Assembly: GCA_013003425.1 (NCBI GenBank)
Contig: JABDJB010000029.1
Span: 20,387-84,386, forward strand
Direction: 5' to 3'
DNA from: Gammaproteobacteria bacterium
GTDB taxonomy: Bacteria > Pseudomonadota > Gammaproteobacteria > Steroidobacterales > JABDKV01
Length of the DNA: 64,000 nucleotides
Shown here: positions 5,525 to 46,152 of the stretch, piece after piece
How positions within the stretch are numbered: the first letter of the stretch is position 1
Layout of the letters: each line of letters begins with the position of its first letter
Notes under the pieces: model-generated
What the model was told of the DNA's origin: nothing
What the model saw: the letters and a program-made list of their open reading frames with translations, nothing else
Database searches by the model: none
Translations under genes and position numbers: made by a program

Positions 5525-6259
5525 TCACTGCGTAGTGCTGGCCACTGCGACTTTTGCCGGGACGAAGCCAAGCGCGTCTGGAAGACGAGTCGTTGTAGCC
5601 GTATTTACCCATTCGTGCGTTGCGGCTTTTAACTTCGAAAGGTCGTTTGCTTCAACTTCTCGCGGCGATTTTTCGACCGCAATTTTTCCGCCAAGGCCAA
5701 ATGGCTCGGAGTAGAGCTGCTGCCCACTGCGCACGTCAAATACGATCAGCATTGAGGGGAGCATGAACTGCGGGCTGAACCCGGACACTTTCTGGACTCG
5801 ATAATGGGCGGCGCGCAACAGAATCAGGTGGTCGACACCCGCCTGTACAAACGCATCCCTGACTTCGGCATCCAGAGACATCGCTGTATTCATGCCGCTG
5901 GCATCCCGGGTGTTAAGGATGGACTGCTTGAATTTTGCGGCGAGTGATTGATCCGACAGGAACCTGCCTACAGGTTGCGCCGTCACGCCTACAGCGGACA
6001 GGCTCTGTGCGAAAGTGGTAGTTACTTCCTGATCGACATCCCAGGACCCTTCGAAAACGGACTCCTGCGAACGATTCTCATTCCAGAGTACTTTGTAAAC
6101 CAGTTCGTCATAGACAATTTTCTTGCCTTCAACAAAGAACGCGGCTGCCACATTGCCATTTTGCACGTCGCTGGCCACTTCCGGCGTCAGCTTTGCCGTT
6201 GAGGCACAGCCGCTGCAGATGACAGCGAGTGCTAATCCAAGTGTAAGTTTGTTAATCAT
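5525..6259 (-). CDS. Lipoprotein of unknown function
   Basis: Start chosen at 'MINKLTLGLALAVICSGC' (lipobox) with SD 'agagga' upstream. The longest ORF extends to 6295. Confidence 0.7.
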   Translation of the reverse strand: MINKLTLGLALAVICSGCASTAKLTPEVASDVQNGNVAAAFFVEGKKIVYDELVYKVLWNENRSQESVFEGSWDVDQEVTTTFAQSLSAVGVTAQPVGRFLSDQSLAAKFKQSILNTRDASGMNTAMSLDAEVRDAFVQAGVDHLILLRAAHYRVQKVSGFSPQFMLPSMLIVFDVRSGQQLYSEPFGLGGKIAVEKSPREVEANDLSKLKAATHEWVNTATTTRLPDALGFVPAKVAVASTTQ

Positions 6260-17062: not shown

Positions 17063-17749
17063 TTATTTAAGCCGGCTGCGGTCCATCTTGCGAACCCGGA
17101 GCAACTTTGGCGCGCGACGCTGCCGGCGGCGGGCGAGAAGACCGGTCATAACGAGCAGGCCGATAGCAATCAGCACAATCGACCCGGGTTCGGGGACGCT
17201 GGTCACCGCGGCGGTACGAAAATACGCCGACACGTGCGAGATATCCTTGGGGTTGCCCGAGGCAGCATTGATAAACGGCGTCAGGTAATCGCCAGCTGTG
17301 GTATTTGGCGTGATGAGATAGCCGACGTAAGAATCCGGCTCGCCATTGCCGCTCTTGAGCACCAGCATCAGGCTGCTGACACCCATGGTGTTCCAGATAT
17401 CATCGATCGACCACTGGCCGCTGATCGTGTCGCCGACGAGAGACAGACCAATGTCCATATCCTGGTCGCTGTCCATTGCTTTCGCCGCAAAAATCCAGTC
17501 ATCAAAACCAAACATCATGTCCTGGTTGACCTGGTATTGCGAAGCGTCGCCGCCCAACCGATCGTTGTTTGTCGAGCCAATCTGGCAGCCATCGCTGGCG
17601 CTGACGTTATCGTCTATCGACGGACTGTAACCAACATCTGCCGGACAAAACGCTGCGCTCGCGCCGGCCGTATTGGCGAATACGGTTACAGACACAATGG
17701 CGATCGCGAGTGTCGCAAATCTTGCAGCCTTTGAGGTTATGTTCAGCAT
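17063..17749 (-). CDS. Secreted protein with canonical PEP-CTERM sorting signal
   Basis: Signal peptide 'ATLAIAIVSVTVFANTAGASA'. The C-terminus 'VPEPGSIVLIAIGLLVMTGLLARRRQRR' is PEP, a TM helix and an Arg cluster. Confidence 0.85.
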   Translation of the reverse strand: MLNITSKAARFATLAIAIVSVTVFANTAGASAAFCPADVGYSPSIDDNVSASDGCQIGSTNNDRLGGDASQYQVNQDMMFGFDDWIFAAKAMDSDQDMDIGLSLVGDTISGQWSIDDIWNTMGVSSLMLVLKSGNGEPDSYVGYLITPNTTAGDYLTPFINAASGNPKDISHVSAYFRTAAVTSVPEPGSIVLIAIGLLVMTGLLARRRQRRAPKLLRVRKMDRSRLK

Positions 17750-17784
17750 CGTCGAATATTTACTCCTGTCTACCCGATAACAGT

Positions 17785-17800
17785 TGCAAGAAATATGCCG
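17785..17800 (-). promoter_or_regulatory. Candidate sigma-54 (-24/-12) promoter for the PEP-CTERM gene 17063..17749
   Basis: The minus strand reads CGGCATATTTCTTGCA, with GG and GC at consensus spacing and 9 of 12 consensus positions of TGGCACG-N4-TTGCW. It lies ~36 nt upstream of the ATG. Confidence 0.45.
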
Positions 17801-17878
17801 CAACGATAACTGTTTGACCCTGCGACTATTGTGGTTACCGTTACAACAACTGCTGTAAAAGAACCCGACGTTTAACCG

Positions 17879-17939: not shown

Positions 17940-18040
17940 ACCAGCATCCCTGTTTTGTGCACCAGGCACTATAAATACTGCGCGCTCGCTGCGACGATGC
18001 TGCGTTAGTACGCAACCGGTGTTTGTTTACTCTGACCGTC

Positions 18041-20833
18041 ATGCTCCGCTCTGGATATTTAAAGCGATTATTTGCGATTCTGCTTGTGCAATGCGTGCTG
18101 GCCGGCTGTGGTGCGCCGGACCAGTCACAGGCATTTGACGCTGCCCGCGCGGCACTCGCTGCAGGGGACACCCGCACCGCACTCATTCACGTACACAACC
18201 TGCTGCGTAGTGACCCGGACCATATTGAAGGACGCCTGCTGCGCGCCGAAATTTCGCTGGCGATGGACGACGGCGCGCTGGCCGAGAAGGACCTGCAGCG
18301 CGTGCTGGATCTCGGCGTTTCATCAGACGATATCGTGATACGGCTTGGCGAGGCGATGCTGTTGCAAAACGCTTTCGGCCACCTGATCGCCGACATTCAC
18401 ACCGGCGCGACAAATGATGACTCAACCCGTGCGCGCATACTGCTGCTGCGGGGCGATGCGTATCTCGGCCTCGAACGCCTGGACAGCGCCGAACAGGCTT
18501 TTCGTGACGTCGCCGACATGGATCCTGGCTCGCCGCACGCGTTGGCCGGGCTGGGCCGCGTTGCATTTTCTCGTGGTCATCCGGACCTGGCCCTGGGGTT
18601 TTTATCGCGGGCACGAGCGATGGCGCCGGGCGACGTGGACATCCTGCGTGCCTACGCTCGCTTTCACCTTGAAGCCGGCAACCTCGACACTGCGAAGGAG
18701 GCATTCAACGAGGCATTAGCGGCGCGACCGGAAGGCCGGCTCGGGCAGCAGAATTTCGCCACACTCAGCGGGCTGTTTGAAACTCATATGCGCCTCGGCG
18801 AGGTCGATGCAGCAGGCGAACTGGCCGAACAGGCACTGGCCGGTTCACCGGGGCATCCCCTGGCGCATTACCTGATGGGCGAACATGCCGTGCGCACTGG
18901 CAACCCGCTCCAGGCGGCAGAACACCTGCAGCGCACCCTGTCGGCATTGCCGTATCACCTCGGCGCGCTGTCGCAACTTGGACTGTTATCACTGGAACAG
19001 CAAAGGTTCGACCTGGCTGAATCGTACCTGCGTCAGGCCCTGGCGCTGGATGAAGACAATGCCAATTTGCGCATGCAGCTGGCGCGAACACTGCTGGCGC
19101 AACGCGAAGGCGACACCGCACTGGAAATACTTGCGCCGATTACCCGGGATGCGAGCGAGTCTCCGGAAATGCAGGCATTGCTGGGTGGTGCTACCCGCCT
19201 GTCGCACAAACACTCCGGATGGCTCGACTACTTCGAACAGGCCGCGGCGTCGGACCCGGACAACACCTACTGGCAGCTGGAACTGGCCCGGGCCTATCTT
19301 GCTGCCGGCGAGCCTGACGAGGGCCTGGCTGTGCTGGCAACCATCCCGCGTTCAGTCGACATCGCCGACCCGCTGGACCGACTGCTGCTGGAGGCACACC
19401 GTCGCAGGGGCGATTTCCAGGCGGCGCTGGCGGCCGGCGTCGCGCTGCACAAACGCGACCCCGACAACAGCAGTCTGGAACTGTTGATTGGTGAAATACA
19501 TCTCGATGCCGGCAACCAGGCTGCCGCACGCAGCGTCATGGAACAGGTGATGGATTCCGGCCCCGCGGACGCCGAGACTCTGTTGTTTGCCGGGCAAGTG
19601 GAGCTTCGCAGCGGCGCCCATGATGCCGCGGAGCGCTATTTTCAAAGTGCCCATTCATTGCAGCCAGACAACCTGAAAGCAATTACCTCGCTGGCAGTTC
19701 TCGCGAGGCGTCAGGGAAACGTTGGACAGGCCATCAACATCTTTGAAGGTGCGCGTGAAACCAACCCGGGCTCGCTGCTGCCGCTGGTTGGTCTGGTGTC
19801 GCTGTACCTGCAGCAGGATAATGTTCAACGTGCCTACGAAACAGCGCAACAGGCGGTCCAACTTCATACCGATGACCCGCGCGCACTACTGGCGCTGGGC
19901 GCAACGCAAATGCGGCGTGAAGAATATCGCGACGCAATTGCGACCCTCGAGGACGCCTCGATACATGCCCGCGATGCTGCCCTGATACATGCCGCCCTGG
20001 CGCACGCGTTCCGCGCGGCGGATCGCGAACGCGATGCGCTGTTTTCCATGCAGCGTGCAATCAGGCTGGCACCGCACAAGATTGAGTATGCCGTTGTAGC
20101 AATTGAACTGAGCCTCACTCTCAAGAAATACGATGATGCAGAACAGCTTGCGCGGCAGGTTATTGCGGCCAACCCGGAAAGTGCAGAAGGGCATCGGCTG
20201 CTCGGCGAAACCCTGATGGCGCAAGGCAAATTTGTCGTTGCAGCGCAGGCTTTCGCCGCTGCTGCAACAGCTGATCCGAGCGAAGCAAATACAATCCGCC
20301 AGTTTCGCGCACTGGCCCGCGCAGGATCCGGCGATGCGGAAAGAGTCTTGCGCGATCGGCTGGAAGCCCACTCCGGCGACTGGCGGGTGCGGCAGGCACT
20401 GGCTGGCCTGCTCCACCGTAAAGGCGCATATGTCGAAGCCATCGAGCATTACCAGCAGATACTTCAGTTGGCCCCCGATAACGCAATGGTTATGAACAAC
20501 CTGGCCGTGCTGTACAAACTGACTGATGACGAACGGGCGCTGGAGATGGCGCAACGGGCCCATGACCACAGCCCGCACATCGGCAATTTCACCGATACGC
20601 TGGGCTGGCTGCTGGTGCAAAACGGCCAGACCACGCGCGGCAATGCGTTGCTGCGCAAGGCCGTACAACAGCTACCCACTGCCCCGGAAATTCGCTATCA
20701 CCTCGCTGCCGGACTGGCGCAAAGCGGGGAAGTGGATGAAGCCCGTGTGCTGCTCAGCTCCCTGGTCGCATCCGAACAGCCCTTCGATGAGATCACCGAG
20801 GCCCGCTCACTGCTGGAGCAGATCGGCCAGTAG
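18041..20833 (+). CDS. prsT: PEP-CTERM-system TPR-repeat lipoprotein (PrsT-like)
   Basis: Lipobox 'LVQCVLAGCG'. ~930 aa of consecutive TPR repeats. The size and architecture match the PrsT family that accompanies exosortase systems. ATG 18041 is preferred over TTG 18023. Confidence 0.75.
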   Translation: MLRSGYLKRLFAILLVQCVLAGCGAPDQSQAFDAARAALAAGDTRTALIHVHNLLRSDPDHIEGRLLRAEISLAMDDGALAEKDLQRVLDLGVSSDDIVIRLGEAMLLQNAFGHLIADIHTGATNDDSTRARILLLRGDAYLGLERLDSAEQAFRDVADMDPGSPHALAGLGRVAFSRGHPDLALGFLSRARAMAPGDVDILRAYARFHLEAGNLDTAKEAFNEALAARPEGRLGQQNFATLSGLFETHMRLGEVDAAGELAEQALAGSPGHPLAHYLMGEHAVRTGNPLQAAEHLQRTLSALPYHLGALSQLGLLSLEQQRFDLAESYLRQALALDEDNANLRMQLARTLLAQREGDTALEILAPITRDASESPEMQALLGGATRLSHKHSGWLDYFEQAAASDPDNTYWQLELARAYLAAGEPDEGLAVLATIPRSVDIADPLDRLLLEAHRRRGDFQAALAAGVALHKRDPDNSSLELLIGEIHLDAGNQAAARSVMEQVMDSGPADAETLLFAGQVELRSGAHDAAERYFQSAHSLQPDNLKAITSLAVLARRQGNVGQAINIFEGARETNPGSLLPLVGLVSLYLQQDNVQRAYETAQQAVQLHTDDPRALLALGATQMRREEYRDAIATLEDASIHARDAALIHAALAHAFRAADRERDALFSMQRAIRLAPHKIEYAVVAIELSLTLKKYDDAEQLARQVIAANPESAEGHRLLGETLMAQGKFVVAAQAFAAAATADPSEANTIRQFRALARAGSGDAERVLRDRLEAHSGDWRVRQALAGLLHRKGAYVEAIEHYQQILQLAPDNAMVMNNLAVLYKLTDDERALEMAQRAHDHSPHIGNFTDTLGWLLVQNGQTTRGNALLRKAVQQLPTAPEIRYHLAAGLAQSGEVDEARVLLSSLVASEQPFDEITEARSLLEQIGQ

Positions 20834-21432: not shown

Positions 21433-21675
21433 GTAGGAGCGGCGTTAGCCGCGAACAAACCCCGCGTGCTGCATCATCAACAATCGTCGAACCGGCCCGG
21501 TCGGTTTGACTCCTTCTACCCTGCCAACCCACCATCAGCCGCGACGCTGCTGATTGCTGCGTCGAAGCATGGTCCCGGGCAATTCGCGGCTAAAGCCGCT
21601 CCCACGAGACATCGTCGCGAGGTGTCGCGGCTGGAAGCCGCTCCCACAGAGCCGCTCCCACAAAGCCGCTGCTAC
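21433..21675. repeat. Composite repeat: REP unit + ~57-bp head motif + REP units and half-units
   Basis: REP units at 21433..21456, 21582..21605 and 21624..21647, and half-units to 21675. The head at 21481..21537 is homologous to 28607..28661 and 40517..40565. The last half-unit contains the stop codon of the 21672..24704 gene. Confidence 0.85.
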
Positions 21676-24600
21676 AGGGAGTTGAGGAACGCGATGAGCG
21701 CGTCTTTTTCGCTCTGGCTCAAGCCCTCAAATGCTTGTTTTGACGCTTCGGCTTCACCACCGTGCCACAGGATAGCCTCGGTAAGATTTCTGGCCCGACC
21801 ATCGTGCAGATAGGCTTCGCCGCCACTGACACCGGCGGTCAGGCCGATACCCCACAGCGGCGCGGTGCGCCACTCGGCGCCGGATGCATCGCCTTCCGCC
21901 AGTGTTGCAGCCAGCCCGGGACCCATGTCGTGCAACAGCAGGTCCGTGTACGGATGAATGGTCTGGTCACGCAGTTCGGCGTGCGGGTGATACGGTGAGG
22001 TTTGCAGGTTGGCGGCATGGCATGCGGCACAACCGCTGCTGTTGAACAATGCCTCACCCTGCAATGCCTGCGTATCATCCAGGTCACGCCGCGCACTGAC
22101 ACCGAGCAGCGCTATATAGGCCGTTAGTTTTTCCAGGTACTCGTCTGCAAGTTCGCCGCCGGCCGGGCCGCAACCGCTTTGTGCTGAGCCACAGTCCGGG
22201 CTCGGCAGCAGCGACGTCATGACGCCGACATCGGTATTCAGCGCCGCGGCCACCTGGTGCTTCAATTTCGCCTGGCTTGCCTTCCAGCCAAAGCGGCCCA
22301 GCCGGGTCTGCCCGTTCTCAGGATCCGTTACCAGGTGCATGCGACCGGAAATTCCGTCGCCGTTGACATCATCCGGGTCAGCCATGGCTTCGATTTCGGT
22401 CTCCGGAATCGATTCCAGCAGGCCCAATCCAACGAGCTGCGGCGCGATGCGTGCGGAGAAATTGACTGGCGTGCCCGGCGTGAATGCGAAATTTGGCGAA
22501 CGCAGGCCGTTGCTTTCGGTCCAGCTGGCAATAGTCACGCTGCCCTCGGGGCTGCCGCTAGTCGACAAAGGTTGCAGTACGGCGCCGGTGAGCGGGTCCG
22601 GGTTGCCGCTGTCATCGCCGGTTCGAACCACGTACTGCCGCAACGGCTGGTTTATCGCCGGTGGCAGTGCGCGACCGTTCTTCGCGTGGCAGGACACACA
22701 CGAACGGTTGATGTAGTTGGTGCCGAGTAGTCCGGCCAGTTCGATAAAGCCGTCATTCTCCGGCGCTTCGTTGTGGGACCCATCACCAAAATCCGTGTGG
22801 TGCACGCGCCGGCCCTCGACGAAAACCTGGCCGTTAATGTTCGACAGGTTGGTCGGCATCTGCAGGAAATGATTGTCGGGCTCATCTGAATACTGATAGT
22901 TCAGCGTCGTGTCGCCACCGATCATTCCTGCCAGAGGCATGGGAAATGAATTCTGCGCTGCTCCCTGCGCCTCCCAGGGCACCACACCCTGGCCGACAAT
23001 ATAGAGGATGGCCGTGCCATAGTAATTGTCGCGCCCGTTCGGCGTTCCGGTCAGAAATTGACTGAGCTCGAACTCCATTCGATCGCCCACCTGCAAGGCT
23101 GAGCCCGTCAACGGGTTGAAGCCTGCGCTGCGGGTGTAGTGCCTGCGTGTTTCTCCCGGCACGTCGAGCTCGGGCACGGCACTCATGATGCCGTTGTCGG
23201 CGTACACGGCGGCTTGCAGGTGGAAAAAGCGCAACTCAGCTTCTGTGGGACTAAGTGGCCACTCGGTTGTGACATTAAAGGTAACGGTGTTGCCACCCCT
23301 GCCGACACTGTCAACAATTTCTATTTCGGCCGTGCGATGCTCCCAGTAAAACGACAGGTAGTGGTCGTAAGCCTGGAACTGCGCCTCGCGGGCATGCCGA
23401 TCGCGCGCACGGTCAGCCAGGCGCGTTATCAGAGCGGCAGGTGTGTCTTCCTGCAGCTCCGGCTCGAGCAATGTGGTTTCATCAAACAGCGGCAGAAACT
23501 GCTGGATGTATTCGACCAGCCACCAGACGCCGCCCAACCCCTGGCCATTGATATCGCCGGGGGCGGTATCGCCGGAATAGAAATACAGCGGCCTGCCTTC
23601 GAACGCAGCCTGGGATGTGCCGTCGCCACGTGTAATGGTCGACAGGCCGGGTACTCCGGACGCGGATCCATCAGCGACCAGCAGCGGCGGCCAGGTCGTC
23701 GCGCAGCCGCCGTTGCAGGTACTGCCGCCCGTACCCAGATCATTATCCAACACATAAAGTGCATAGCCGGGAAAGGCGGAGCCGGTGCCGCCGGTCAGTA
23801 TGCCGTCGACTACTGCGACCTCATTCATGTTTACCACGATTTCGCAGCCGCTTGAATCGACCGTCGCACCCGGTGGTGAGCCCGGGCACAGGTCTACGGA
23901 ATCAACCACCCCGTCGTCATCGACATCGACATCTATCTCGATGCCGGCGCCCGCGTCACCGAATACATCCATCTCCCAGATCGAATAGCCATAGATGTTA
24001 CCCGGGCTACGGCTCAGACCATTCATACGCAGGTAACGATAGGTGCCGTTGATGTCGACGATGTCGGTGCGATCACCAAACTGACCGCCGGTCTGGGTAG
24101 ACAGCGTATCCCACGACACGTTGTCGTTGGAGCCTTCAATATTGTAAGTGCCGGCGTTGGCTGCTTCCCAGAAAATCTCAACACGCGTCAATGGATAGCT
24201 TTGCGCCAGGTCGAGAACCAGGATGCCGGGATCAAGTCCATGTACCGTTTCCCAGCGCGTAAACATGTTTCCGTCTACCGCCAGGCTGGCCGGCTGCAGT
24301 TCCGAGTTTGAAGTTGCTGTCGCTGCCAGTTCGGTCGCGCTGTTGCAGGCCGTGAACCAGCCGCTGGGGCCGGGCGTGCCAAGGAACAACCCGCGCATGA
24401 TGGCAAGGTCGGCCAGCGAAACGGAACCATCGCCATCCAGATCGGCTTCCGCGTTACCGGTCAAAAATACCGACCGCATAAAACCCAGGTCCTGCAGGTC
24501 AACTACGCAGTCATTGTTGAAGTCGGCGTCGCAGGCGTTACCGATATTGTCGCCGTCGCTGTCCTGCTGAGCGGCATTGGCCACCAGCAGGCAATTGTCA

Positions 24601-24704
24601 CCGGCGTCGCTGACGCCGTCGCTGTCGCTGTCGGCTGCATTTGCTGTCGTCATGACCATTGTCAGCAGGGCGGCCAGAACTGGTGGCATTAGTCGCTCGT
24701 TCAT
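21672..24704 (-). CDS. Secreted multidomain protein: TSP3/dockerin-like Ca-binding repeats, discoidin (F5/8 type C) domain, COG4315-like repeat, C-terminal DUF1111 di-haem oxidoreductase
   Basis: Signal peptide. 'DSDGVSDAGDNC...DSDGDNIGNACD'. 'LAVDGNMFTRWET...' is discoidin-like. 'ITRGDGTSQAAFEGRPLYFYSGD' is present. 'CVSCHAKNG' and 'GCAACHAANL' plus 'EAILWHGGEA' are typical of DUF1111. Confidence 0.75.
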   Translation of the reverse strand: MNERLMPPVLAALLTMVMTTANAADSDSDGVSDAGDNCLLVANAAQQDSDGDNIGNACDADFNNDCVVDLQDLGFMRSVFLTGNAEADLDGDGSVSLADLAIMRGLFLGTPGPSGWFTACNSATELAATATSNSELQPASLAVDGNMFTRWETVHGLDPGILVLDLAQSYPLTRVEIFWEAANAGTYNIEGSNDNVSWDTLSTQTGGQFGDRTDIVDINGTYRYLRMNGLSRSPGNIYGYSIWEMDVFGDAGAGIEIDVDVDDDGVVDSVDLCPGSPPGATVDSSGCEIVVNMNEVAVVDGILTGGTGSAFPGYALYVLDNDLGTGGSTCNGGCATTWPPLLVADGSASGVPGLSTITRGDGTSQAAFEGRPLYFYSGDTAPGDINGQGLGGVWWLVEYIQQFLPLFDETTLLEPELQEDTPAALITRLADRARDRHAREAQFQAYDHYLSFYWEHRTAEIEIVDSVGRGGNTVTFNVTTEWPLSPTEAELRFFHLQAAVYADNGIMSAVPELDVPGETRRHYTRSAGFNPLTGSALQVGDRMEFELSQFLTGTPNGRDNYYGTAILYIVGQGVVPWEAQGAAQNSFPMPLAGMIGGDTTLNYQYSDEPDNHFLQMPTNLSNINGQVFVEGRRVHHTDFGDGSHNEAPENDGFIELAGLLGTNYINRSCVSCHAKNGRALPPAINQPLRQYVVRTGDDSGNPDPLTGAVLQPLSTSGSPEGSVTIASWTESNGLRSPNFAFTPGTPVNFSARIAPQLVGLGLLESIPETEIEAMADPDDVNGDGISGRMHLVTDPENGQTRLGRFGWKASQAKLKHQVAAALNTDVGVMTSLLPSPDCGSAQSGCGPAGGELADEYLEKLTAYIALLGVSARRDLDDTQALQGEALFNSSGCAACHAANLQTSPYHPHAELRDQTIHPYTDLLLHDMGPGLAATLAEGDASGAEWRTAPLWGIGLTAGVSGGEAYLHDGRARNLTEAILWHGGEAEASKQAFEGLSQSEKDALIAFLNSL

Positions 24705-25154
24705 CAGAGTCTCTTCGTTTCGCTACTCGAGCGCGCTATATTACGCAAAAGTGACAGCGCTGTCATTTTGTTCGCTTTTCCCTGTTTCTGTGGCTATAGC
24801 CTCGCCCTGCCCTGCTCAAACGTCCCGCAAAGACCGCGTCGCCGCGGGGCGGGTTTGTGCTGCGAGCATTGTTCAAAAGCTGACGGACCGGCGCGATGTT
24901 TTCGTCATCGCGACTCACGACATTCGTGCGTGCGGGGAGTCCTGATGCCGATGTGAATTGAGCCGGGCTTATTCTTTTTGTGTGGCCGAAAAAAAAGAAA
25001 CAGTCGTCGTCAGATATTGGGGCTGGCGCGGGTTATCTCAAGCTCATCTGAAATTCTGAGCATAAGTGCTTGCCCTCATTAGCGACCCAAAGCAGCAGCG
25101 CATACTGACTGGTGTGGAAGCACATTTTTGGAGGTTATAGAAAGGAGGCATATC

Positions 25155-27305
25155 ATGAAAACACAAAATGTCTTGAACCACAGCCCAGGCAGCCTGGGCC
25201 GCAGATGTGCGCAGAGGGCTGCATTGATACTTTGTGCAGCCGCGCTTGTAGCGCTACCGGGCATGGCAGTTGCGAAATCAGTCTATCTGATCGCTGATAT
25301 CAACAGCAGCCCCACCCCGATAGAAACCTACAACATCAACCCGGACGGCACGATTACCTTCCAGGCAACCGCGAATGTTCCGGCACTGGCTGGCGGCGCC
25401 GTTGGTATCGCGCTTGATTCGGTGTCAGAAACCCTGTTCATTACTTACGAGGTTTCGAATGTCATTCAGCTGGTTGACGCCAGGACTTTCGAAGTATTGA
25501 GCCAGGCCACGGCACCCGGTGCATCCAACCTGGCCGGCATTGCTTATGACGAGGAATTCGAGCTCGTTTACACGATAGATCGCAATACGCCGACACTGTA
25601 CGTCTATGAATGGGATGCGCTGAATACCACCCTGGCGCTCGCTGCCGGTTTCCCGATCGATCTGCCGGAAGCGGTCGCGCTATATGGCATCGCGCTCGAT
25701 GAAATCAATGACCTCCTTTACGTGGCAGACCCCTTTGCCAGCACACCGGCAAACAGGGGGCCCGCTGGCGGATTGGTGCATTACTACGATACGGCAACCT
25801 TCTCCAAGCAAGGCGATTTCATGCCAGCCCATCAACCGGTTGGAATCGCAGTAGATCCTCTGCGCGGGTTCGTCTACACCGGATCGATATTCGGCTCTGA
25901 CTTGCTGACCAAGTACGATGTCAACACCGATACTGAAGTCACGCAGAGCGTAAGCGACACCGGTGACGGCGTCGTAGGTCTGGCAGTTGATGCGGCAACC
26001 GGGCTGGTTTTCGCCAGTCGTGGTACCAGTTCTGCTACCGACGACCTGACCGTGTGGAATACCAGCAGCGAACCATTCGTATTGCTGGACGAGACCGACG
26101 CGCGCGGTGACGTGACCGGCGTCGTTATACCCTTCGGTGAAGTGTCGTTTAACCCGCTCAACCTGAGCAAGGATGACGGCTTGGACGAAGCGGCAGGCGA
26201 CTGCATCGTGATGAGCGGAAATGTCAGCTATGACGTCTGCTTCGACAATGCCAACGGGTTCGATGCGACCAACGTCATGATCGCCGATGAGTTTCCGGCT
26301 GATGCTATCTTTGTGTCGGCAACGGACGGCGGCACTGAGGTCTCGACCGGTCGCGTTGAATGGGCAATCACGACTCTTGCGGCTGGCTCTGCGGAACAGT
26401 GCTATCAGTTAACGTTGCAGTTGACCGGTGAGCCGCTTTCGATGATAACCAACAGCGTCACCATAGAAAGCGACCAGACACCGCCGACAACTACCAGTGA
26501 TGACACGAACGTCTGCGAGACGCCGCCTGTTACCTTTGTCGACTTGATTATCGAAGGTGAAGGTGAGGGCGGAGGCAGCCTCGGGCTTATCGAGCTACTG
26601 GCATTGATGACCACCGGCCTGACAAGCCTGATTCGACGCGTCGGACGCACAGCGAAGGCGCCGGGGATCCTTGGCGCAGCCATGATGGCGGCGCTACTGG
26701 TCATAATGATTCATCCGGCAGAGGCACAGAGCGGTGACTGGTATGCCGGCGCGAGTTTTGGCTGGTCCGATGGCGATTTTGATGCCGGCGACCTTAGCGC
26801 TGGCATGGCCGCGAAGGGCTGGACTATCAATATGGTCGATACAGACCATACCGATACCGGCATGAAACTGTTCGGTGGTTACAACTTCACGCCCAACTGG
26901 GCGGTGGAAGTTGCCTGGGTCGATCTCGGCGAGATCGAATCACGATTCGGCACCACCGTTGAAGACTCTGAAGTCAGCATGGTCGTTGCTGATACGGCAA
27001 TGGTGCATGGATACCTGGCGGAAGGTCTCGCCATCAGTGGTGTTGGGCGCTACCCGCTGAACGATAAAGGCTCGGTTTTTGCCAAAATCGGCTTCTTCTC
27101 CTGGGATGCCGATGCTGAAGCCAAGTTAATCAGCGGCGGCACCGGCAGCGCTGAAGTCAGCGACGATGGCACCGACATCACCTGGGGTGTAGGCGCCAGC
27201 TATGAGATCGCGCCAAACTGGTCGGTTCGTGGTGAATACGAAAGTTTCGCCATGTCCCGCAACGATGCAACGCTCTTTTCAATTGGCGTTGAGTTTGGTT
27301 TCTGA
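25155..27305 (+). CDS. Chimeric ORF: YVTN-type beta-propeller + DUF11-like domain + GlyGly-CTERM-like tag, fused in frame to a signal-peptide-bearing OmpA/OmpX-type 8-strand-like beta-barrel
   Basis: SD 'aaaggagg' precedes ATG 25155. 'GGGSLGLIELLALMTTGLTSLIRRVGR' is internal. It is followed by 'MTTGLTSLIRRVGRTAKAPGILGAAMMAALLVIMIHPAEA|QS', then 'DWYAGASFGW...' and a terminal 'FSIGVEFGF'. Confidence 0.7.
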   Translation: MKTQNVLNHSPGSLGRRCAQRAALILCAAALVALPGMAVAKSVYLIADINSSPTPIETYNINPDGTITFQATANVPALAGGAVGIALDSVSETLFITYEVSNVIQLVDARTFEVLSQATAPGASNLAGIAYDEEFELVYTIDRNTPTLYVYEWDALNTTLALAAGFPIDLPEAVALYGIALDEINDLLYVADPFASTPANRGPAGGLVHYYDTATFSKQGDFMPAHQPVGIAVDPLRGFVYTGSIFGSDLLTKYDVNTDTEVTQSVSDTGDGVVGLAVDAATGLVFASRGTSSATDDLTVWNTSSEPFVLLDETDARGDVTGVVIPFGEVSFNPLNLSKDDGLDEAAGDCIVMSGNVSYDVCFDNANGFDATNVMIADEFPADAIFVSATDGGTEVSTGRVEWAITTLAAGSAEQCYQLTLQLTGEPLSMITNSVTIESDQTPPTTTSDDTNVCETPPVTFVDLIIEGEGEGGGSLGLIELLALMTTGLTSLIRRVGRTAKAPGILGAAMMAALLVIMIHPAEAQSGDWYAGASFGWSDGDFDAGDLSAGMAAKGWTINMVDTDHTDTGMKLFGGYNFTPNWAVEVAWVDLGEIESRFGTTVEDSEVSMVVADTAMVHGYLAEGLAISGVGRYPLNDKGSVFAKIGFFSWDADAEAKLISGGTGSAEVSDDGTDITWGVGASYEIAPNWSVRGEYESFAMSRNDATLFSIGVEFGF

Positions 27306-27327
27306 CCGAATGACTGCAAGTGGTTTA

Positions 27328-27356
27328 GAAGCCCCGCAAAAGCGGGGCTTCTTTTA
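27328..27356 (+). terminator. Rho-independent terminator
   Basis: gaagccccgc-aaaa-gcggggcttc followed by tttt. Confidence 0.85.
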
Positions 27357-27491
27357 TCGTTGTCGTGAGCGGGCCTGCGGGGCGCTGCTGCGCAGCAGCA
27401 TAGGCAACTAATAACCATACTGGAGGCGCCAACAGGACAACTTCCGCTGTCAGGTATACTGGCGAAAGCCTTATTTTCGAGGGGGCCCGCC

Positions 27492-28872: not shown

Positions 28873-29460
28873 TTAGCGGCGACGCATCCAGCCAAGCAGG
28901 CCGAGGGCCGATGCAAACAGCCAGGCTGCCGCAGGAATCGGCACTACCGAAAACGCTCTCACGTTCGACAAGTCCGAAATATTGCCGCCTTCGTTGAGGA
29001 AATCGGCGAGGGTGTAGGGACGCGCATCCGGATTACAGATACCGGCCGGGCAGATAACCGACGAATAATCCGGTGTCCACATCGTGATGTCGCTGGACCA
29101 GTCACCGCTCGTCCCGGTTACTCTGCCGAGAATGAAATAGCCATTGGCTTTGAAGGCCAGGTGCGTTATCGAACTATCGGAGATCGACCACGTTCCGGAA
29201 TTCGTATTGTAGTCATTATCGGCCGAGCCATCCATGCCGTTTATGGTGTAGCCGCTCGTCACCTGGACCACCGAGTCGAGACCTACGCCCAGGATCAAAG
29301 CGACGTTGGCAACGGTCGCGTTGCCGGCGCTAAAACATTCGGCGTCTTCTTCGCCGGTCGGGCAGCCACCGACAAAAGTGAGGTTGGTCACGGCGGCCGA
29401 TACCGGGCCACTTATCAATGCAGCTGCGATAGCTACGCCGGCTAAAGTCCTGAGGTTCAT
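28873..29460 (-). CDS. Secreted protein with VPLPA-CTERM-like sorting signal
   Basis: Signal peptide 'AIAAALISGPVSA'. C-terminus 'VVPIPAAAWLFASALGLLGWMRRR'. Confidence 0.75.
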   Translation of the reverse strand: MNLRTLAGVAIAAALISGPVSAAVTNLTFVGGCPTGEEDAECFSAGNATVANVALILGVGLDSVVQVTSGYTINGMDGSADNDYNTNSGTWSISDSSITHLAFKANGYFILGRVTGTSGDWSSDITMWTPDYSSVICPAGICNPDARPYTLADFLNEGGNISDLSNVRAFSVVPIPAAAWLFASALGLLGWMRRR

Positions 29461-40516: not shown

Positions 40517-40761
40517 GAACCGGCCCGGCCGGGTCGACTCCTTTTACCCTGCCAACCTACCATCAGTGGGAGCCGCTTCCACAACAGGTCGCAAGTCGTC
40601 GCGGCTGGAAGCCGTTCCCACAACAGGTCGCAAGTCGTCGCGGCTGGAAGCCGCTCCCACAACAGGTCGCAAGTCGTCGCGGCTGGAAGCCGCTCCCACA
40701 GGTCGCAAGTAGTCGCGGCTGGAAGCCGCTCCCACAGGTCGCAAGTCGTCGCGGCTCCTAC
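40517..40761. repeat. Composite repeat: head motif + tandem array of five 39/36-bp REP-containing units
   Basis: Head at 40517..40565. Units at 40583..40621, 40622..40660, 40661..40699, 40700..40735 and 40736..40761 (truncated). The unit is aacaggtcgcaagtcgtcgcggctggaagccgctcccac. The last unit supplies the stop codon of 40758..41744. Confidence 0.9.
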
Positions 40762-41744
40762 TGGACGGACGCGGGAAGTCCGGACCTTATTTGTCGCGCT
40801 GCAGCTATGCACACCGTGTTGCGGCCCGCGGCCTTGGCCTGGTAAGCCGCGGCATCGGCACGGGCGATCAGCGTTTCACGGTTCCCGCCGGGGTCAAGCG
40901 TGGCCACTCCGACGCTGATCGTTACTGAGCCGTGCGGCTGCGTTGCGCCACCTGCAAATGGATGGTTAGCGACCGCTACGCGCAGGCGTTCGCCGAAAAT
41001 CCCGGCGCTCTCACCCGGTGTTTCCGGTGCCAGCACGACAAATTCCTCGCCACCCCAGCGCGCAACGATATCGCTGTCTCGTGCCTCGTGGAGCAGGATT
41101 TTTGCAATGCCACGCAGCACTTCATCACCGGCCGGATGACCGTGTGTGTCGTTGTACTGCTTGAACTTGTCGACGTCGATAAACAGCATCGAAAGGTCGC
41201 GCCTGTAACGCTTGCTGCGCTCAATCTCGGCTGTGACCGCCTCCTGGAAATGACGGTGATTGAACAGGTTGGTAAGCCCGTCACGCACGGCAAGCTCACG
41301 AAAGAAGTTGTTCAACTGCTCCAGTTCGGAGTTGGTGCGCGTCAGGGTGGCGACCAGCAGCTCGCGTTCGCGCGTCATGCGCACAACCTCGAGTGCCCGC
41401 TTTACGGTCTCAGAAACCACCGCAAGGCTTTCAAACGGCTTGTTAAGGAAATCGTAAGCGCCGCCCTTAAGCGCCGCAATGGCATTATCCATCGACCCAT
41501 AGCTGGTCATGACAACCGCCTGTACCGGCTCATAGTTGGCACGTACTTCACGCAACAGGTCGAGGCCATCGCCATTGGCCATGCGCAGGTCGGTAACCAC
41601 GACATCGATGCCGCCGCGCTGCAGACAGGTCAATGCTTCGCTGCCGCTGCCGGCCTCATGCACGGTATGGCCGTCATCACGCAGCACTTCTCCAACCATG
41701 CTGCGCACGGCTGCGTCATCGTCCACTACCAGCACCTGGTACAT
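40758..41744 (-). CDS. Response regulator with REC + GGDEF (diguanylate cyclase) domains
   Basis: 'VLVVDDD...DVVVTDLRM' includes the phospho-acceptor Asp. 'RDSDIVARWGGEEF' is an RxxD I-site plus a GGEEF active site. Confidence 0.9.
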   Translation of the reverse strand: MYQVLVVDDDAAVRSMVGEVLRDDGHTVHEAGSGSEALTCLQRGGIDVVVTDLRMANGDGLDLLREVRANYEPVQAVVMTSYGSMDNAIAALKGGAYDFLNKPFESLAVVSETVKRALEVVRMTRERELLVATLTRTNSELEQLNNFFRELAVRDGLTNLFNHRHFQEAVTAEIERSKRYRRDLSMLFIDVDKFKQYNDTHGHPAGDEVLRGIAKILLHEARDSDIVARWGGEEFVVLAPETPGESAGIFGERLRVAVANHPFAGGATQPHGSVTISVGVATLDPGGNRETLIARADAAAYQAKAAGRNTVCIAAARQIRSGLPASVQ

Positions 41745-41823
41745 CCGCCGCAGAGTCCTGTGTTATGTCAAATTCAATTGACGGGTTCTACCCCCTGTGT
41801 ATCGGTCGTGAAACGGGATGCTT

Positions 41824-41872
<49 letters not shown>

Positions 41873-41911
41873 CCCGAGTGTTCACCCCGGGCCAGGACAG
41901 TCAGTATTGCC

Positions 41912-42892
41912 TCAGGCGGGCTGGCTCATCAGCACTGCAGGCCCGGCGGCGGCGACACGCACGGCGTTGCGGCCGGCAGCCTTGGCCTCGTAAACGGCCG
42001 TGTCGGCACGCGCGACGATTGACTCATGTGACCCTGCCGGGTCGAGCGTGGCAACACCGATACTGACCGTTATCAAACCCTTTGGCTGGGTTTCACGACC
42101 CTGGAAAGGATAGGCCGCGACCGCGGCACGAATCCGTTCGGCCAGCTCACTTGCTTTGTCGACGCTGGTTTCCGGTGCCAGCAGGACGAACTCCTCGCCG
42201 CCCCAGCGCGCCACGGTATCAGTATCGCGGGCATGCTCCAGCAGCATCTTGGCAATGCCACGCAACACTTCATCGCCGGCCGGATGCCCCTGGGTGTCGT
42301 TGTAGGTCTTGAAGTGATCGACATCAATAAACAAGACCGATACGTCACGCTGGTAACGCTTGGAACGTTCAACTTCAGCCGTCAGCGCTTCCTGGAAATG
42401 CCGGTGGTTATAGAGATTGGTCAGCCCGTCCTTGATCGCCAGGTCGCGGAAAAAGTTGTTCATCCGCTCCAGTTCGACATTGTTGCGGGTCAGAGTTGCG
42501 ACCAGCAGGTCGCGTTCCCGTGACATACGCACGGCATCAAGCGCGCGCTTTGCTGTTTCTGTGATTACATCGAGATTTTCAAATGGCTTGGTCAGAAAAT
42601 CGTACGCGCCGGCCTTGAGCGCACTGACTGCGGCATCCATCGAAGCGTGACTGGTCATGATAATGACCTGGATCGCGGTATCCCTGCGGCGTATTTCACG
42701 CAGCAGGCCGATGCCATCCATGCCGGCCATGCGAATGTCCGTGATGACAAGGTCGATGCCGCCCGACTCGAGACGCTTGAGCGCCGCCTCGGCACTTTCC
42801 GCCTCTTCCACGTCATGGCCATCATCGCTGAGGACCTCTGCGACTATGCCGCGAATAGCGGTGTCATCATCAACTACCAATATGTGATACAT
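41912..42892 (-). CDS. Response regulator with REC + GGDEF domains (paralog of 40758..41744)
   Basis: Colinear with the downstream paralog over its whole length. 'RDTDTVARWGGEEF'. Confidence 0.9.
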   Translation of the reverse strand: MYHILVVDDDTAIRGIVAEVLSDDGHDVEEAESAEAALKRLESGGIDLVITDIRMAGMDGIGLLREIRRRDTAIQVIIMTSHASMDAAVSALKAGAYDFLTKPFENLDVITETAKRALDAVRMSRERDLLVATLTRNNVELERMNNFFRDLAIKDGLTNLYNHRHFQEALTAEVERSKRYQRDVSVLFIDVDHFKTYNDTQGHPAGDEVLRGIAKMLLEHARDTDTVARWGGEEFVLLAPETSVDKASELAERIRAAVAAYPFQGRETQPKGLITVSIGVATLDPAGSHESIVARADTAVYEAKAAGRNAVRVAAAGPAVLMSQPA

Positions 42893-42982
42893 GGACTCCG
42901 GCTTCCTGCCTTATGTAAAAAAACCTGACTATGCGTCCTGTGTCACTATATCGGCCGGTTCCGGCCCAGGCTTTGAGCGAGG

Positions 42983-44836
42983 TCACACTACCGCCTTCTG
43001 TTCAGCGGGTTCAGCCAGGGTCGCCATGGCCACCGGCAGGGTGATGACGAAGGTCGTGCCTTTGCCCGGCTCGCTCTCTACCACGATATCGCCACCATGG
43101 TCGCGAATAATGCCGTAGGACACCGACAGCCCCAGGCCGGTCCCCTGACCGGCCGGCTTGGTCGTAAAGAACGGCTCGAAGATCTTGTCGCGAATTTCAG
43201 CAGGCATACCCGGACCGGTGTCTGCCACTCGCATCTCTATACGCTTGTCGTCCAGCAAGCGGGTGGCAATGCTGAACGAGCCCGGCGTGCCGGCCATAGC
43301 CTGCTGCGCATTGACTGCGAAGTTCATCAGCACCTGCTGCAGCTGGTTGGCGTTGGCGTAGACCCGCGGCAGGTCGGGAGTGAGATTCTTCTGGATACTG
43401 ACCTGGTTGATTTTCAACTGGTGATCGACGATGTCCAGCGAGTCTTCAACAACCGAGTTGATGTCGATGCGCTTCTGTTCCGCTTTTTCCTGGCGAGCGA
43501 ACTTGAGCAGGTTTGAAATGATCTCGGTGCAGCGCCGCGTTTCTTTTTCAATAACTTCCAGATGCTTGCGCAGCGGGCTGGCCTCATCGACCTTGCGCAG
43601 CGCCAGCTGGGCGTAACCGAGGATCCCGGCCAGCGGATTTTTAACTTCATGCGCGATACCGGCACCGAGCTGACCGAAAGCCGCCATCTTTTCCGACTGG
43701 ACCAGCGCATTGTTGGCGCGTTCCAGCTCATGGTCGCGATCCTTGAGCTCTCCGGTCATCTGGTTGAACGACTCGGCCAGCAGACCCAGCTCGTCGCGCG
43801 TACCGGCATTCACGTTGACATCAAAGTCGCCTTTACCGATGTCCTGGGCTGCCTGGGTCAGGCTTTCCAGCGGCCGGGTAAGTGCCTGCGCCATGAACAG
43901 GGTCACCAGCGTAGCGGCACCAAACAGCACCAGCGCAATTACCACCAGGCTGCCAAGCAGATTACGTGCAGTCAGATAGGCGGCGCTGCGCGGGATTTCT
44001 ATACCGGCATTCATGCCGCCAAAACGGGCATGCGCAAACCCGCCAATATACTGCTCACCGTCGCGTTCGAAATCCAGGGTCGTACTAAGCGCATGTTCAT
44101 AGGTGCCGAGTTCGACCGGGTCACCGACGGCTTCGCGCTTCAGGTTACGCAACACCCTGGCCTTGTCACTATGCGCGACAAAGTGACCATCACTGTCGGT
44201 AATCCAGGTCTCGAAGGCATCGGAGCGTCCGGCCAGCTCCATTAGCCGGTCGAGCCGCACAAAGCCGACAATGGCCGTACGCGGCGGCGTTGCTTCGCTC
44301 GTATCAGTCGACTGGCCTGACACATCGTAAGCAATCGCAATCGACATCATCGGCAGGGCGTTGTTGAACGTGACATTGCGTACATACACTTCCCCGGCTG
44401 CCAGCTGGTCGTACGGCGGCGGATTCTCTGCCTGCAGATTCAGCATCACCTGGGTGGCGATCGAGGCCTGCTGCAGCGTTGCCGCGTCATAAACCATAAC
44501 CGGGTCAGCGTTCTCTCGGATGACACTCACTGCGACAAACTCGCTGAAGCTGCCGAACAGGCTCTGGATCAGATTCTGTTTCTGGCTGGCACCAAGCTCA
44601 GTATCAAACAATGTATTGGCAAAGATCGACAGATTTTCGGTGTAGCTTTGCACCATCACATTGGTTTCACGCGACATCTGAACTGCCATGATGGACGTGA
44701 GATCACGAATGTAGGTGGTCTTGTCCTCGTGAAACAGGTTTGCCATCGATGCGGTAATTAAAGCCACAACAAGCATGACAATCGCCAGCACGGCGAACAG
44801 CAGCTTGACCCGGATGGGGGTACCTCGGCGATTCAT
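42983..44836 (-). CDS. Sensor histidine kinase (TM - Cache-like periplasmic domain - TM - HAMP - HisKA - HATPase_c)
   Basis: Two TM segments flank a ~270-aa extracytoplasmic region. HAMP, H-box '[10 protein letters not shown]', and N/G1/G2 boxes ('DTGPGMP', 'GTGLGLS'). Confidence 0.9.
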
Positions 44837-46152
44837 TTTCCGCCTCCGTTAATAAAGGTGGTGGTGTTAAACATTTGTGATTGGTACGTGACGTTTCCGG
44901 CGCTATCAACGGCCTCGACCACGATCAGGTTGGCGCCCAGGACTACCGGCACGTCGTGCCGGAAGCGACCGGAATTTGTTGCCACTTCCTCGCCCTGTAC
45001 GTAGACACGTGCGGCGTCGGTGCTGCCGCTGAGCGTCACAAACTGCTGGCCGGCCTGGTGCACAAACGGCTGCAGAACAAGTTGTGGCGGCTGCTCGTCA
45101 CGCACCAGTCTCAGCAGGTGGGGAGCGGAAGCCGGACCCTCCATGAAGCCATTCATCCCGCTGACCTGCCAGTAATAGGTGCCATGCTGCAGCCCGCCAT
45201 AGGAGAACTTCAGTTCGCCCAGCCCCTGATCGACGACCAGGTCACTCATTTGTGGATCACGAGCAACTTTGAGCCTGTAAGCATCAACGTCGACTACCGC
45301 ATTCCAGGCAAACACTATCTCCGGCGGTAGCGAGCGGTATTCATATGTGCTCCGGTTTCGCGGCCGGATGCCATCCGGCGTTCCGGGCAATTTGCCACGC
45401 TCGAGCACCTCGCCGTTGATGCTGATGGTGATGCCATGCTCGGCGTCGACAGTCTGGGTCTGGCCGGCTACCGTCACCACACTGCTTCCTGCCATAACAG
45501 ACACTGAGGACGACAGGTCAGGATTGACGTTGATGTTGAAAGCGACTGCTGCATCATCATCGCCCGGGATAAAACGAGCCAGACCATTCGGCAGCGCTAC
45601 CTCAAGATGTCGCGGATCGCTCGGCGATGACACAAACTGGGCGCCCAGGCTGCCCTCCATCATGACTATGGAATTGGTATGCCGTGGCGTGAACAGGTCG
45701 GTGACCCCACCCTGAAAGACAATGAGCGAATTGGCGCCGATCCTGACAACGCTTTCGTCGTCGAGCCTGACAGTGGCACTGGAATTGCGCTGGGTTTGCA
45801 ACGAATCCTGCTCTGCCAGCGTGACTCCTTCCTGTGCCGGACGCCACGCCAGCTCATTGCGTCCTTTGAGTTTTACATCGCGGCGCACCGTCAGTATCTC
45901 CGCCACGGCTGCTGCGCCACCGGCATGCCCGTGCGAATAGCTCAGCTCGCGTCCACCTGCCGAATCGCGTGCGTCACTTGCCTGGCCGAGGCTCTGCTCA
46001 TTGAGTGCAACGCCGGTCGGAAACAACACACGAATCAGGAAGTACATAAACACGCCGAACAACGCCAGCGCCGCCAGTGCGACCTTGACGTCGAGTGAGC
46101 GGCCGGCCAGTCGCGGTCGGGTTTGCTCTATATTCTGCTGCTCTTCGGGCAT
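44833..46152 (-). CDS. Membrane-anchored FecR-domain protein with C-terminal Ig-like modules
   Basis: N-terminal TM. 'SATVRLDDESVVRIGANSLIVF' is a FecR-type motif. The stop codon overlaps the kinase start (ATGA). Confidence 0.7.
   Translation of the reverse strand: MPEEQQNIEQTRPRLAGRSLDVKVALAALALFGVFMYFLIRVLFPTGVALNEQSLGQASDARDSAGGRELSYSHGHAGGAAAVAEILTVRRDVKLKGRNELAWRPAQEGVTLAEQDSLQTQRNSSATVRLDDESVVRIGANSLIVFQGGVTDLFTPRHTNSIVMMEGSLGAQFVSSPSDPRHLEVALPNGLARFIPGDDDAAVAFNINVNPDLSSSVSVMAGSSVVTVAGQTQTVDAEHGITISINGEVLERGKLPGTPDGIRPRNRSTYEYRSLPPEIVFAWNAVVDVDAYRLKVARDPQMSDLVVDQGLGELKFSYGGLQHGTYYWQVSGMNGFMEGPASAPHLLRLVRDEQPPQLVLQPFVHQAGQQFVTLSGSTDAARVYVQGEEVATNSGRFRHDVPVVLGANLIVVEAVDSAGNVTYQSQMFNTTTFINGGGK

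Follow-up and report, generated by a model that had tools for sequence, protein, structure and literature searches.

The 64,000-nucleotide stretch of DNA analyzed here (the window; positions 20,387 to 84,386 of contig JABDJB010000029.1, assembly GCA_013003425.1, from a gammaproteobacterium of the Steroidobacterales) carries at 25155-27305 an open reading frame (ORF) that runs in a single unbroken frame from ATG to stop. The encoded 716-amino-acid (aa) protein comprises, in order, a signal peptide, a YVTN propeller, DUF11 sandwiches, a GlyGly-CTERM-like sorting tag, a second hydrophobic stretch, and an OmpA-like outer-membrane (OM) barrel. No stop codon, terminator, or promoter-like site lies between the two halves of the ORF, and no NCBIfam model spans the whole protein. 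The start was placed at the ATG at 25155, not at the TTG at 25128, because the position of the AAGGAGG motif supports the former. Looked up as an exact sequence, neither the 716-aa protein nor its 725-aa variant gave a match. A first-pass annotation, made from the sequence without database searches, had described a secreted YVTN-propeller and DUF11 protein with a GlyGly-CTERM-like tag, followed by a signal-like segment and an OmpA-type barrel. Pfam, AlphaFold, Foldseek, and the sequence itself agree with that anatomy, and the strings it quoted are all present, i.e., GGGSLG (aa 472-477), RRVGRTAK (aa 494-501), AEA↓Q (aa 522-524↓525; arrows here and below mark predicted cuts), and the C-terminal VEFGF. 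This architecture is almost certainly genuine and conserved. The coordinates of its parts are collected in the table below.

The AlphaFold model of the protein, for which 15 homologues served as input, has a mean predicted local distance difference test score (pLDDT) of 80. Around the predicted cleavage site of the N-terminal signal peptide, residues A40, K41, and S42 are almost invariant in the full-length alignment (A4). Foldseek matches the N part to 1l0q (E = 2e-14), an archaeal S-layer protein fragment that comprises a YVTN propeller and PKD, and the propeller also has a weak YncE match in NCBIfam. Pfam DUF11 matches aa 354-450 with 40.8 bits against a cut-off of 24.6. In the C part, Pfam OmpA_membrane (PF01389) matches aa 525-696 with 71.6 bits (cut-off 21; E = 9e-20) and OMP_b-brl (PF13505) matches aa 511-716 with 64.6 bits (cut-off 28.7; E = 1.7e-17). 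The modelled barrel (aa 529-715, pLDDT ~88) has eight strands as read from its secondary structure, and Foldseek aligns the C part with the OmpA membrane domain 9fzd_A at a TM-score of 0.78. With Pfam matches above the gathering score, the OmpA fold, and a C-terminal Phe, the domain is an OmpA-like barrel. It comes without the OmpA peptidoglycan-binding domain, as Pfam found no PF00691 in the 716-aa protein. Assignment to porin OmpA proper (NF008071) was rejected, the score being 40.3 bits versus an equivalog score of 277 and the PF00691 domain being missing. A classical autotransporter was likewise rejected, since PF03797 reached 18.9 bits (cut-off 26) on the last strands only, TIGR01414 reached 12 bits (cut-off 16), and the barrel is of the wrong type.

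The junction between the halves reads EGEGEGGGSLG-LIELLALMTTGLTSLI-RRVGRTAK-APGILGAAMMAALLVIMI-HPAEA↓QSGDWYAG. Two hydrophobic stretches, one in the tag (aa 476-493) and one beyond it (aa 502-521), have mean Kyte-Doolittle hydropathies of 1.8 and 2.7 over 13 residues. AlphaFold renders this region (aa 473-526, pLDDT <50) as two isolated helices (aa 478-495 and 505-517), neither of which packs into the propeller/sandwich part or the barrel. The first portion has the three-part layout of a GlyGly-CTERM signal, i.e., EGEGEGGGSLG, the helix LGLIELLALMTTGLTSLI, and RRVGRTAK, but not its extreme C-terminal position, with 222 residues (aa 495-716) following the first Arg; the same holds in all homologues. 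The second portion has the features of a Sec signal peptide, namely the basic n-region RRVGRTAK, the h-region APGILGAAMMAALLVIMI, and small residues at -3 and -1 in HPAEA↓Q, but not its N-terminal position, as it begins at aa 494. The overlap of tag and signal proposed in the first-pass annotation is thereby upheld, the Arg cluster of the tag doubling as the n-region of the signal-like segment. Across 29 aligned sequences, the small-residue rule at -3/-1 holds. When the tags of the window protein and 28 homologues were cut after the basic cluster and scanned against NCBIfam, 8 of the 29 matched MYXO-CTERM, 7 matched SVAGG, and 6 matched TIGR03501 (best E = 0.16); every match was weak, and the families matched by at least two tags were almost all C-terminal sorting-signal or rhombosortase-target models. 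Exosortase was rejected as the enzyme for the window tag, which has no PEP motif and whose homologues adjoin rhombosortase, though PEP-CTERM proteins are encoded nearby.

Table. Features of the fused gene and, in the last row, a gene that recurs beside its homologues (positions are those of the window unless a locus is given).
Feature	Position	Strand	Basis
Whole coding sequence, 716 aa + stop (27303-27305)	25155..27305	+	ORF list and sequence
Shine-Dalgarno AAGGAGG, 6 nt 5' of ATG	25142..25148	+	Read in sequence
N-terminal Sec signal peptide, aa 1-40, predicted cut AVA↓KS	25155..25274	+	AlphaFold helix aa 14-33; putative cut
YVTN-type β-propeller, aa 41-324	25275..26126	+	AlphaFold pLDDT ~80-95; Foldseek 1l0q
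DUF11-type β-sandwich region, aa 336-471	26160..26567	+	AlphaFold strands aa 336-471; Pfam DUF11
Internal GlyGly-CTERM-like tripartite tag, aa 468-501: GEGEGGGSLG, helix LGLIELLALMTTGLTSLI, RRVGRTAK	26556..26657	+	Sequence; pattern in 28/28 homologues
Internal signal-peptide-like segment, aa 494-524: RRVGRTAK, APGILGAAMMAALLVIMI, HPAEA; predicted signal peptidase I cut after A524 (26726/26727)	26634..26726	+	Alignment with stand-alone barrels
8-stranded OmpA-like barrel, aa 525-716, aromatic C-terminal signal VEFGF	26727..27302	+	Pfam, AlphaFold, Foldseek
Intrinsic terminator: 11-bp stem with 8 GC pairs (27327-27352), then T-rich tail	27327..27362	+	Terminator scan
MauG/MbnH-like gene	L001:12214-13338, L004:12107-13237, L007:12165-13217, L009:12627-13586, L034:2356-3480, L081:892-2025		

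Many full-length relatives (679-711 aa, 94-98% query coverage, 38-44% identity) came out of a homologue search in 5.8 billion proteins, along with longer ones of 818-940 aa that have additional DUF11 repeats; all of these combine DUF11 with the barrel. The same pattern of tag, loop, and signal-like segment is present in 28/28 barrel-bearing homologues at 38-65% identity, despite drift of the residues themselves. The conserved junction starts with G-x-G-x-G-G-(G/S)-x-G-(P/L)-x-E-L-L, followed by ~17 hydrophobic residues and an R/K cluster, and ends with the second hydrophobic stretch, AxA/VxA/SxA, and the first barrel strand, (W/F)Y(A/V)G. In P0018 (L005:10001-12124) and P0006, GGGS is replaced at the same position by LCANLIPVG(G/E)PH(A/T)AW, an IPTL/PEP-like motif. 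Among relatives of the propeller and DUF11 part that lack a barrel, from Planctomycetota, Chloroflexota, and archaea, the proteins end in PEP-CTERM, PEF-CTERM, IPTL-CTERM, or type IX secretion system domains; this variety of anchors identifies the N part as a module of the cell surface that employs the sorting system available in its host.

The unbroken architecture occurs on dozens of independent contigs, which refutes the sequencing or frame artefact that the first-pass annotation had entertained. Its suggestion of a recent fusion by loss of a stop codon is unsupported as regards the recency, since the fusion is common to homologues down to 38% identity and the junction and barrel, as described below, end many unrelated passengers. 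One outcome that it had named as refuting, namely orthologues with the same continuous frame and no tag-like or signal-like features, was borne out by half: the frame is indeed unbroken in the orthologues, but both the tag and the signal features are kept.

A search with the junction and barrel retrieved stand-alone barrels of 176-205 aa, e.g., from Seongchinamella and Marinobacterium, the N-terminal signal peptides of which (MNKTKLIGAILLTLGMTGTALA↓QNGFYAGAS) align exactly onto the internal segment of the window protein (GILGAAMMAALLVIMIHPAEA↓QSGDWYAGAS), with coinciding cut sites of the ALA↓Q type. In view of this correspondence between the internal signal and the N-terminal ones, the likely origin, judged from sequence comparison, is an old fusion of a tagged protein with a complete barrel precursor including its signal peptide. 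A split ancestor, with a tagged gene followed by a separate barrel gene, was not found in three stand-alone barrel loci (L078-L080). In one of these, from Seongchinamella unica, a 393-aa DUF11 protein (L079:1854-3035, minus strand) is encoded divergently from the stand-alone barrel P0128; its C-terminal region has GGGGSGGAASCFIATAAYGS and then hydrophobic stretches, a different, Cys-containing element.

The tag, the signal, and the barrel also form a cassette that is found on other passengers. When a profile of this cassette was searched against 1.84 billion representatives, stand-alone barrels matched from profile position ~37-45 at their own residue 3-10, and long proteins matched with their very C-terminus, from profile position 1-4. 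Of the top 150 representatives in this search, 64 have two hydrophobic stretches before a C-terminal barrel, 63 are stand-alone barrels, and 23 are others. A stricter five-criterion script passed 63 of 103 barrel-bearing candidates, ranging from 273 to 2890 aa; the count is conservative, as several failures were parsing errors (e.g., P0016-P0019, clearly with AQA↓A). The cassette thus ends at least 63 other cluster representatives, with tag and signal always together as one unit. Its adhesin-like passengers are mutually unrelated (PKD/REJ, cadherin-like/Big_9, Ig-like, Calx-beta/SBBP, and β-helix with DUF11/CARDB). Three cassette relatives (P0211, P0232, and P0157) have GGGGC or GGC tags of the MYXO-CTERM kind.

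Gene context ties the tag to rhombosortase far more strongly than the model scores, which on their own leave the GlyGly-CTERM assignment tentative: genes for rhombosortase recur beside the homologous genes. Homologous loci were found via the A4 alignment, which also drew in many relatives without the cassette. A 200-aa gene divergent from homologue P0026 scores 154.8 bits on the rhombosortase model TIGR03902 (cut-off 84), and the corresponding scores are 147.7 bits for the neighbour of P0035 and 145.2 bits for that of P0018; these TIGR03902-scoring genes (145-155 bits) directly adjoin the homologous gene in loci L001, L004, and L005, and in L005, where P0018 carries the IPTL/PEP-like motif, the rhombosortase gene lies directly downstream. 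With these three rhombosortases as tblastn queries, adjacent copies were also found in L009 (a gammaproteobacterial metagenome-assembled genome), L008 (a Chromatiales metagenome-assembled genome), L012, and L036. Approached from the rhombosortase side, one of three sampled loci (L081) has a 710-aa fused gene as the divergent neighbour. A rhombosortase gene thus adjoins the homologous gene in 8 independent gammaproteobacterial loci, those in L008, L009, L012, L036, and L081 having been identified by tblastn or as a Pfam Rhomboid neighbour. Among loci of the cassette-less relatives, 0/22 have one. In one gammaproteobacterial genome (GCA_945788625.1; L083:85-4847 and 5001-5549), the rhombosortase gene and an operon for type II secretion (GspG to GspN) are divergently oriented, a layout that fits the reported dependence of rhombosortase substrates on the type II secretion system.

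These arrangements are best explained, with a probability of roughly 0.6, by a polyprotein-like precursor whose membrane hairpin would be cut by both rhombosortase and signal peptidase I, a scheme of which we infer every step. The N-terminal signal peptide would direct the chain to the Sec machinery, and the propeller and DUF11 part would fold in the periplasm. The tag helix (aa 476-493) would then act as a stop-transfer segment, leaving the RRVGRTAK loop in the cytoplasm, and the stretch at aa 502-521 would restart translocation as an internal signal peptide, taking the barrel domain to the periplasm. The charge distribution read from the sequence fits such a hairpin, with the passenger periplasmic, the basic loop cytoplasmic, and the barrel periplasmic. 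The barrel begins 5 residues past the second span and therefore could not reach the OM unless it were cut off; signal peptidase I is the natural candidate because the conserved A-x-A sits at a position homologous to a real signal-peptidase site. A cut at A524↓Q525 would free the barrel for insertion into the OM by the β-barrel assembly machinery, rhombosortase would cut at the Gly-Gly motif, and the ~50-residue hairpin would be discarded.

The neighbouring rhombosortase, like the Gly-Gly motif, suggests the pathway established for VesB of Vibrio cholerae, the only protein for which cutting at this motif and lipid attachment by rhombosortase are known. There, the second Gly is exposed by the rhombosortase cut and receives a moiety containing glycerophosphoethanolamine, and display at the surface requires type II secretion. 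The products of the precursor would thus be a lipid-anchored surface protein and a free barrel, and the in-frame link would ensure that passenger and barrel are made 1:1 at the same translocon. By analogy with TraB as the partner of TraA, the barrel is probably the OM partner of the anchored passenger. That the ORF yields two products, as had been suggested in the first-pass annotation, is probably right, with proteolysis instead of a second start as the route, given that a Shine-Dalgarno sequence is lacking and the proposed start is not conserved.

Several observations weigh against the two-protease precursor. Two relatives from the cassette profile search, P0166 and P0176, have a single hydrophobic stretch of ~20 residues between GGGSGS and A-x-A↓Q, with no Arg/Lys cluster, and are topologically incompatible with the hairpin. 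The window tag does not reach TIGR03501, the GlyGly-CTERM model; its sole match, a weak one, is to the tag end of SVAGG (NF038115; E = 0.06-0.08). No adjacent rhombosortase was found in four or five informative homologous loci (L006, L007, L010, L034, and L018, the last cut by a contig end). The search for a rhombosortase gene that the first-pass annotation had advised for the genome likewise gave none within the 64-kb window by tblastn. The role of the barrel is a guess by analogy and the weakest part of the model, and the processing of members of the cassette family is read wholly from their sequences. To our knowledge, natural internal signal-peptidase sites are rare in bacteria.

Other readings of the junction also have to be considered. 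Under one, the barrel precursor would be a nested gene with its own translation start inside the ORF, at Met485 (26607) or a codon close by; the long ORF would also give a tagged protein, and no internal signal-peptidase step would be needed. From Met485 onwards, the window sequence does read as a signal peptide; L008 has AGGAG and an ATG in the loop, and P0001, P0002, and L010 have a Met just ahead of the basic n-region. However, the window linker has no Shine-Dalgarno-like motif before any in-frame ATG, GTG, or TTG, the segment between the two helices is free of in-frame start codons in L004 and L005 and of Met in P0004, P0005, and P0006, and among the nine loci for which junction DNA was compared, only L008 combines a Shine-Dalgarno sequence with a start. 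Moreover, the full-length product would still contain the barrel, so the topological problem would persist. We accordingly regard a nested gene as unlikely; the internal start giving two products, as had been proposed earlier, is unsupported, and the Met at 26607 is not upheld as a start, being neither preceded by a Shine-Dalgarno sequence nor conserved. Least credible of all is an assembly or sequencing artefact, or a very recent stop loss, joining two ordinary genes: nothing beyond the unusual look of the junction speaks for it, and the same unbroken frame is present in 28 homologues, at more than 12 separate loci sequenced by different projects, and with unrelated passenger families.

No more probable than the nested gene is a single mature protein, in which the two stretches would be neither cut nor membrane-spanning and the passenger would remain covalently on the barrel, either autotransporter-like or as an anchored periplasmic domain. 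The order of N-terminal passenger and C-terminal barrel resembles type V secretion, the last strands have a weak Autotransporter match (E = 0.0014), and the single-stretch P0166 and P0176 argue against a strict hairpin. Yet that match, at 18.9 bits, falls below the cut-off of 26, an 8-stranded OmpA-type barrel has no pore for a linker, the two hydrophobic stretches (hydropathies of 1.8 and 2.7), with an Arg cluster between them, should halt in the inner membrane, and the barrel begins as little as 5 residues past the second; the conserved A-x-A, the Gly-Gly motif, and the rhombosortase neighbour would be left without a purpose. A more elaborate possibility is that rhombosortase acts as a transpeptidase, joining the C-terminal Gly of the passenger to the barrel N-terminus exposed by signal peptidase, such that the hairpin is excised and its flanks ligated. 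In VesB, rhombosortase resolves its acyl intermediate with an amine (ethanolamine), a hairpin would keep donor and acceptor a few residues from the same membrane face, and the tag and signal always co-occur as one cassette. The idea is nonetheless conjecture without known precedent, and since an 8-stranded barrel has its two termini on the periplasmic side, adhesin- or S-layer-like passengers would stay inside the envelope; we hold such ligation to be very improbable. The same low standing applies to its extension, i.e., that the cassette is a general, undescribed gammaproteobacterial surface-display device in which the hairpin is spliced out by natural protein ligation of two periplasmic domains. 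A milder version, in which the two separate products form an obligate 1:1 adhesin-dock pair, is contained in the cleaved-precursor model that we favour.

Further genes surround the fused gene and its homologues. A MauG/MbnH-like di-haem peroxidase gene (PF03150; TIGR04039 147 bits, below cut-off) adjoins the fused gene in several loci, in two broken pieces in the case of L008, and the fused gene, the rhombosortase gene, and this gene form a recurring three-gene cluster in L001, L004, L009, and L081. In the window, the divergent neighbour (21672-24704, minus strand) instead encodes a secreted protein of 1010 aa in which TSP3, F5/8 type C, and Lipoprotein_15 domains accompany another kind of di-haem domain, DHOR (PF06537). 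Such di-haem neighbours may be involved in redox modification of, or partnership with, the propeller protein. A 195-aa secreted protein without a Pfam match (28873-29460, minus strand) ends in VPIPAAAWLFASALGLLGWMRRR, a PEP-CTERM-like or VPxxA-type tag, and a PF07589 PEP-CTERM protein (17063-17803, minus strand) and a 936-aa TPR protein (18023-20833, plus strand) are also encoded; from these nearby PEP-CTERM-type proteins it follows that the organism probably also runs an exosortase-type sorting system. Farther away, a 1928-aa protein (46162-51948, minus strand) has Big_1/Invasin_D3, SdrD_B, and Glucodextran_B domains and a mid-protein OmpA peptidoglycan-binding domain (aa 727-822). On the low-coordinate side of its gene (40758-46152, minus strand) are genes for a 439-aa Glucodextran_B protein, a HAMP histidine kinase, and two response-regulator-GGDEF proteins.

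If the two-protease model is true, this would be a natural bacterial polyprotein with an internal Sec signal peptide, a device familiar from viral polyproteins and rare in bacteria, and would tie rhombosortase sorting to a dedicated OM partner, a link that TraA/TraB makes plausible for myxosortase. By definition, GlyGly-CTERM signals stand at the extreme C-terminus; an entire family described here has an internal GlyGly-CTERM-like copy fused to a complete barrel precursor. Models that expect a C-terminal tag would miss such proteins, and their current source names ("outer membrane beta-barrel protein," "OOP family OmpA-OmpF porin," and "uncharacterized repeat protein (TIGR01451 family)") leave the sorting signal unmentioned. 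Where a genome has a single GlyGly-CTERM target, its gene is usually adjacent to that for rhombosortase (16/21 genomes), and three genomes (Thioalkalivibrio sulfidophilus HL-EbGr7, gamma proteobacterium HTCC5015, and Verrucomicrobiae DG1235) have rhombosortase with no detectable GlyGly-CTERM target (Haft and Varghese 2011). Internal tags are obvious candidate targets for these orphan rhombosortases, and, if the model holds, the present family would supply a concrete candidate for those genomes. The presence of the cassette on giant adhesin-like proteins (up to 2890 aa) may also bear on their route to the cell surface.

Our survey of the literature, incomplete in its coverage, returned no account of an internal GlyGly-CTERM, a tag/signal-peptide overlap, or a tag-signal-barrel cassette, and nothing relevant on bacterial internal-signal-peptide polyproteins or rhomboid and barrel fusions; in the two Haft papers, no barrel is described downstream of the tag. 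One of the closest systems is that of GlyGly-CTERM and rhombosortase (TIGR03501/TIGR03902; VesB, RssP), in which, as in the window protein, a secreted domain with a separate N-terminal signal peptide is followed by a Gly-rich Gly-Gly motif, a helix, and a basic cluster. As in dedicated rhombosortase systems (Haft and Varghese 2011), the rhombosortase gene lies beside that of its target in the homologues, and by analogy, the expected chemistry would be a cut at the Gly-Gly motif and attachment of a glycerophosphoethanolamine-containing lipid. Unlike in that system, the tag is internal, its basic cluster also serves a second signal as n-region, and a conserved Glu (x-E-L-L) follows the motif.

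The nearest precedents, MXAN_5598 and the TraA/TraB pair of Myxococcus xanthus, come from passages of a 2025 paper on myxosortase (PMC11980579), which describe MXAN_5598 as having an internal MYXO-CTERM followed by an OM barrel, with the N part proposed to be processed and surface anchored. As described there, MXAN_5598 has a large adhesin-like N part, an internal tripartite tag, and an OM barrel in one frame, and TraA (tagged) and TraB (barrel) correspond to a split version with overlapping ORFs. According to the same passages, however, their tag is a MYXO-CTERM with an invariant Cys, cut by myxosortase, which belongs to a different protease family, whereas the window tag has Gly-Gly and no Cys; their barrels have an OmpA peptidoglycan-binding domain, whereas the window protein is without OmpA_C. 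MXAN_5598 is, moreover, a single gene mentioned in passing and compared here by its description only, whereas the cassette reported here is on many passengers. LPXTG and PGF tags are said in that paper to work mid-protein (citing Navarre and Schneewind 1994; Abdul Halim et al. 2017). As portrayed there, LPXTG and the Haloferax ArtA substrate, whose tripartite structure is not terminal, resemble the present case in that a tripartite signal is recognized with polypeptide after it, but they involve other enzymes and envelopes, with no downstream signal peptide or barrel.

Classical autotransporters (type Va) likewise have a signal peptide, a passenger, and a C-terminal OM barrel in one chain; they differ in that their barrels have 12 strands and a pore occupied by a linker helix, and in that nothing between passenger and barrel spans the inner membrane. 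FbcH of Bradyrhizobium japonicum, a cytochrome b/c1 polyprotein, is reportedly split at an internal signal-peptide-like segment, but its proteins are unrelated, both products are in the inner membrane, and neither a sorting tag nor a second protease is involved. Ultimately, the components and the general idea are known from other systems, and what appears to be new is the rhombosortase version, the basic cluster shared by tag and signal, and the spread of the cassette over many passengers.

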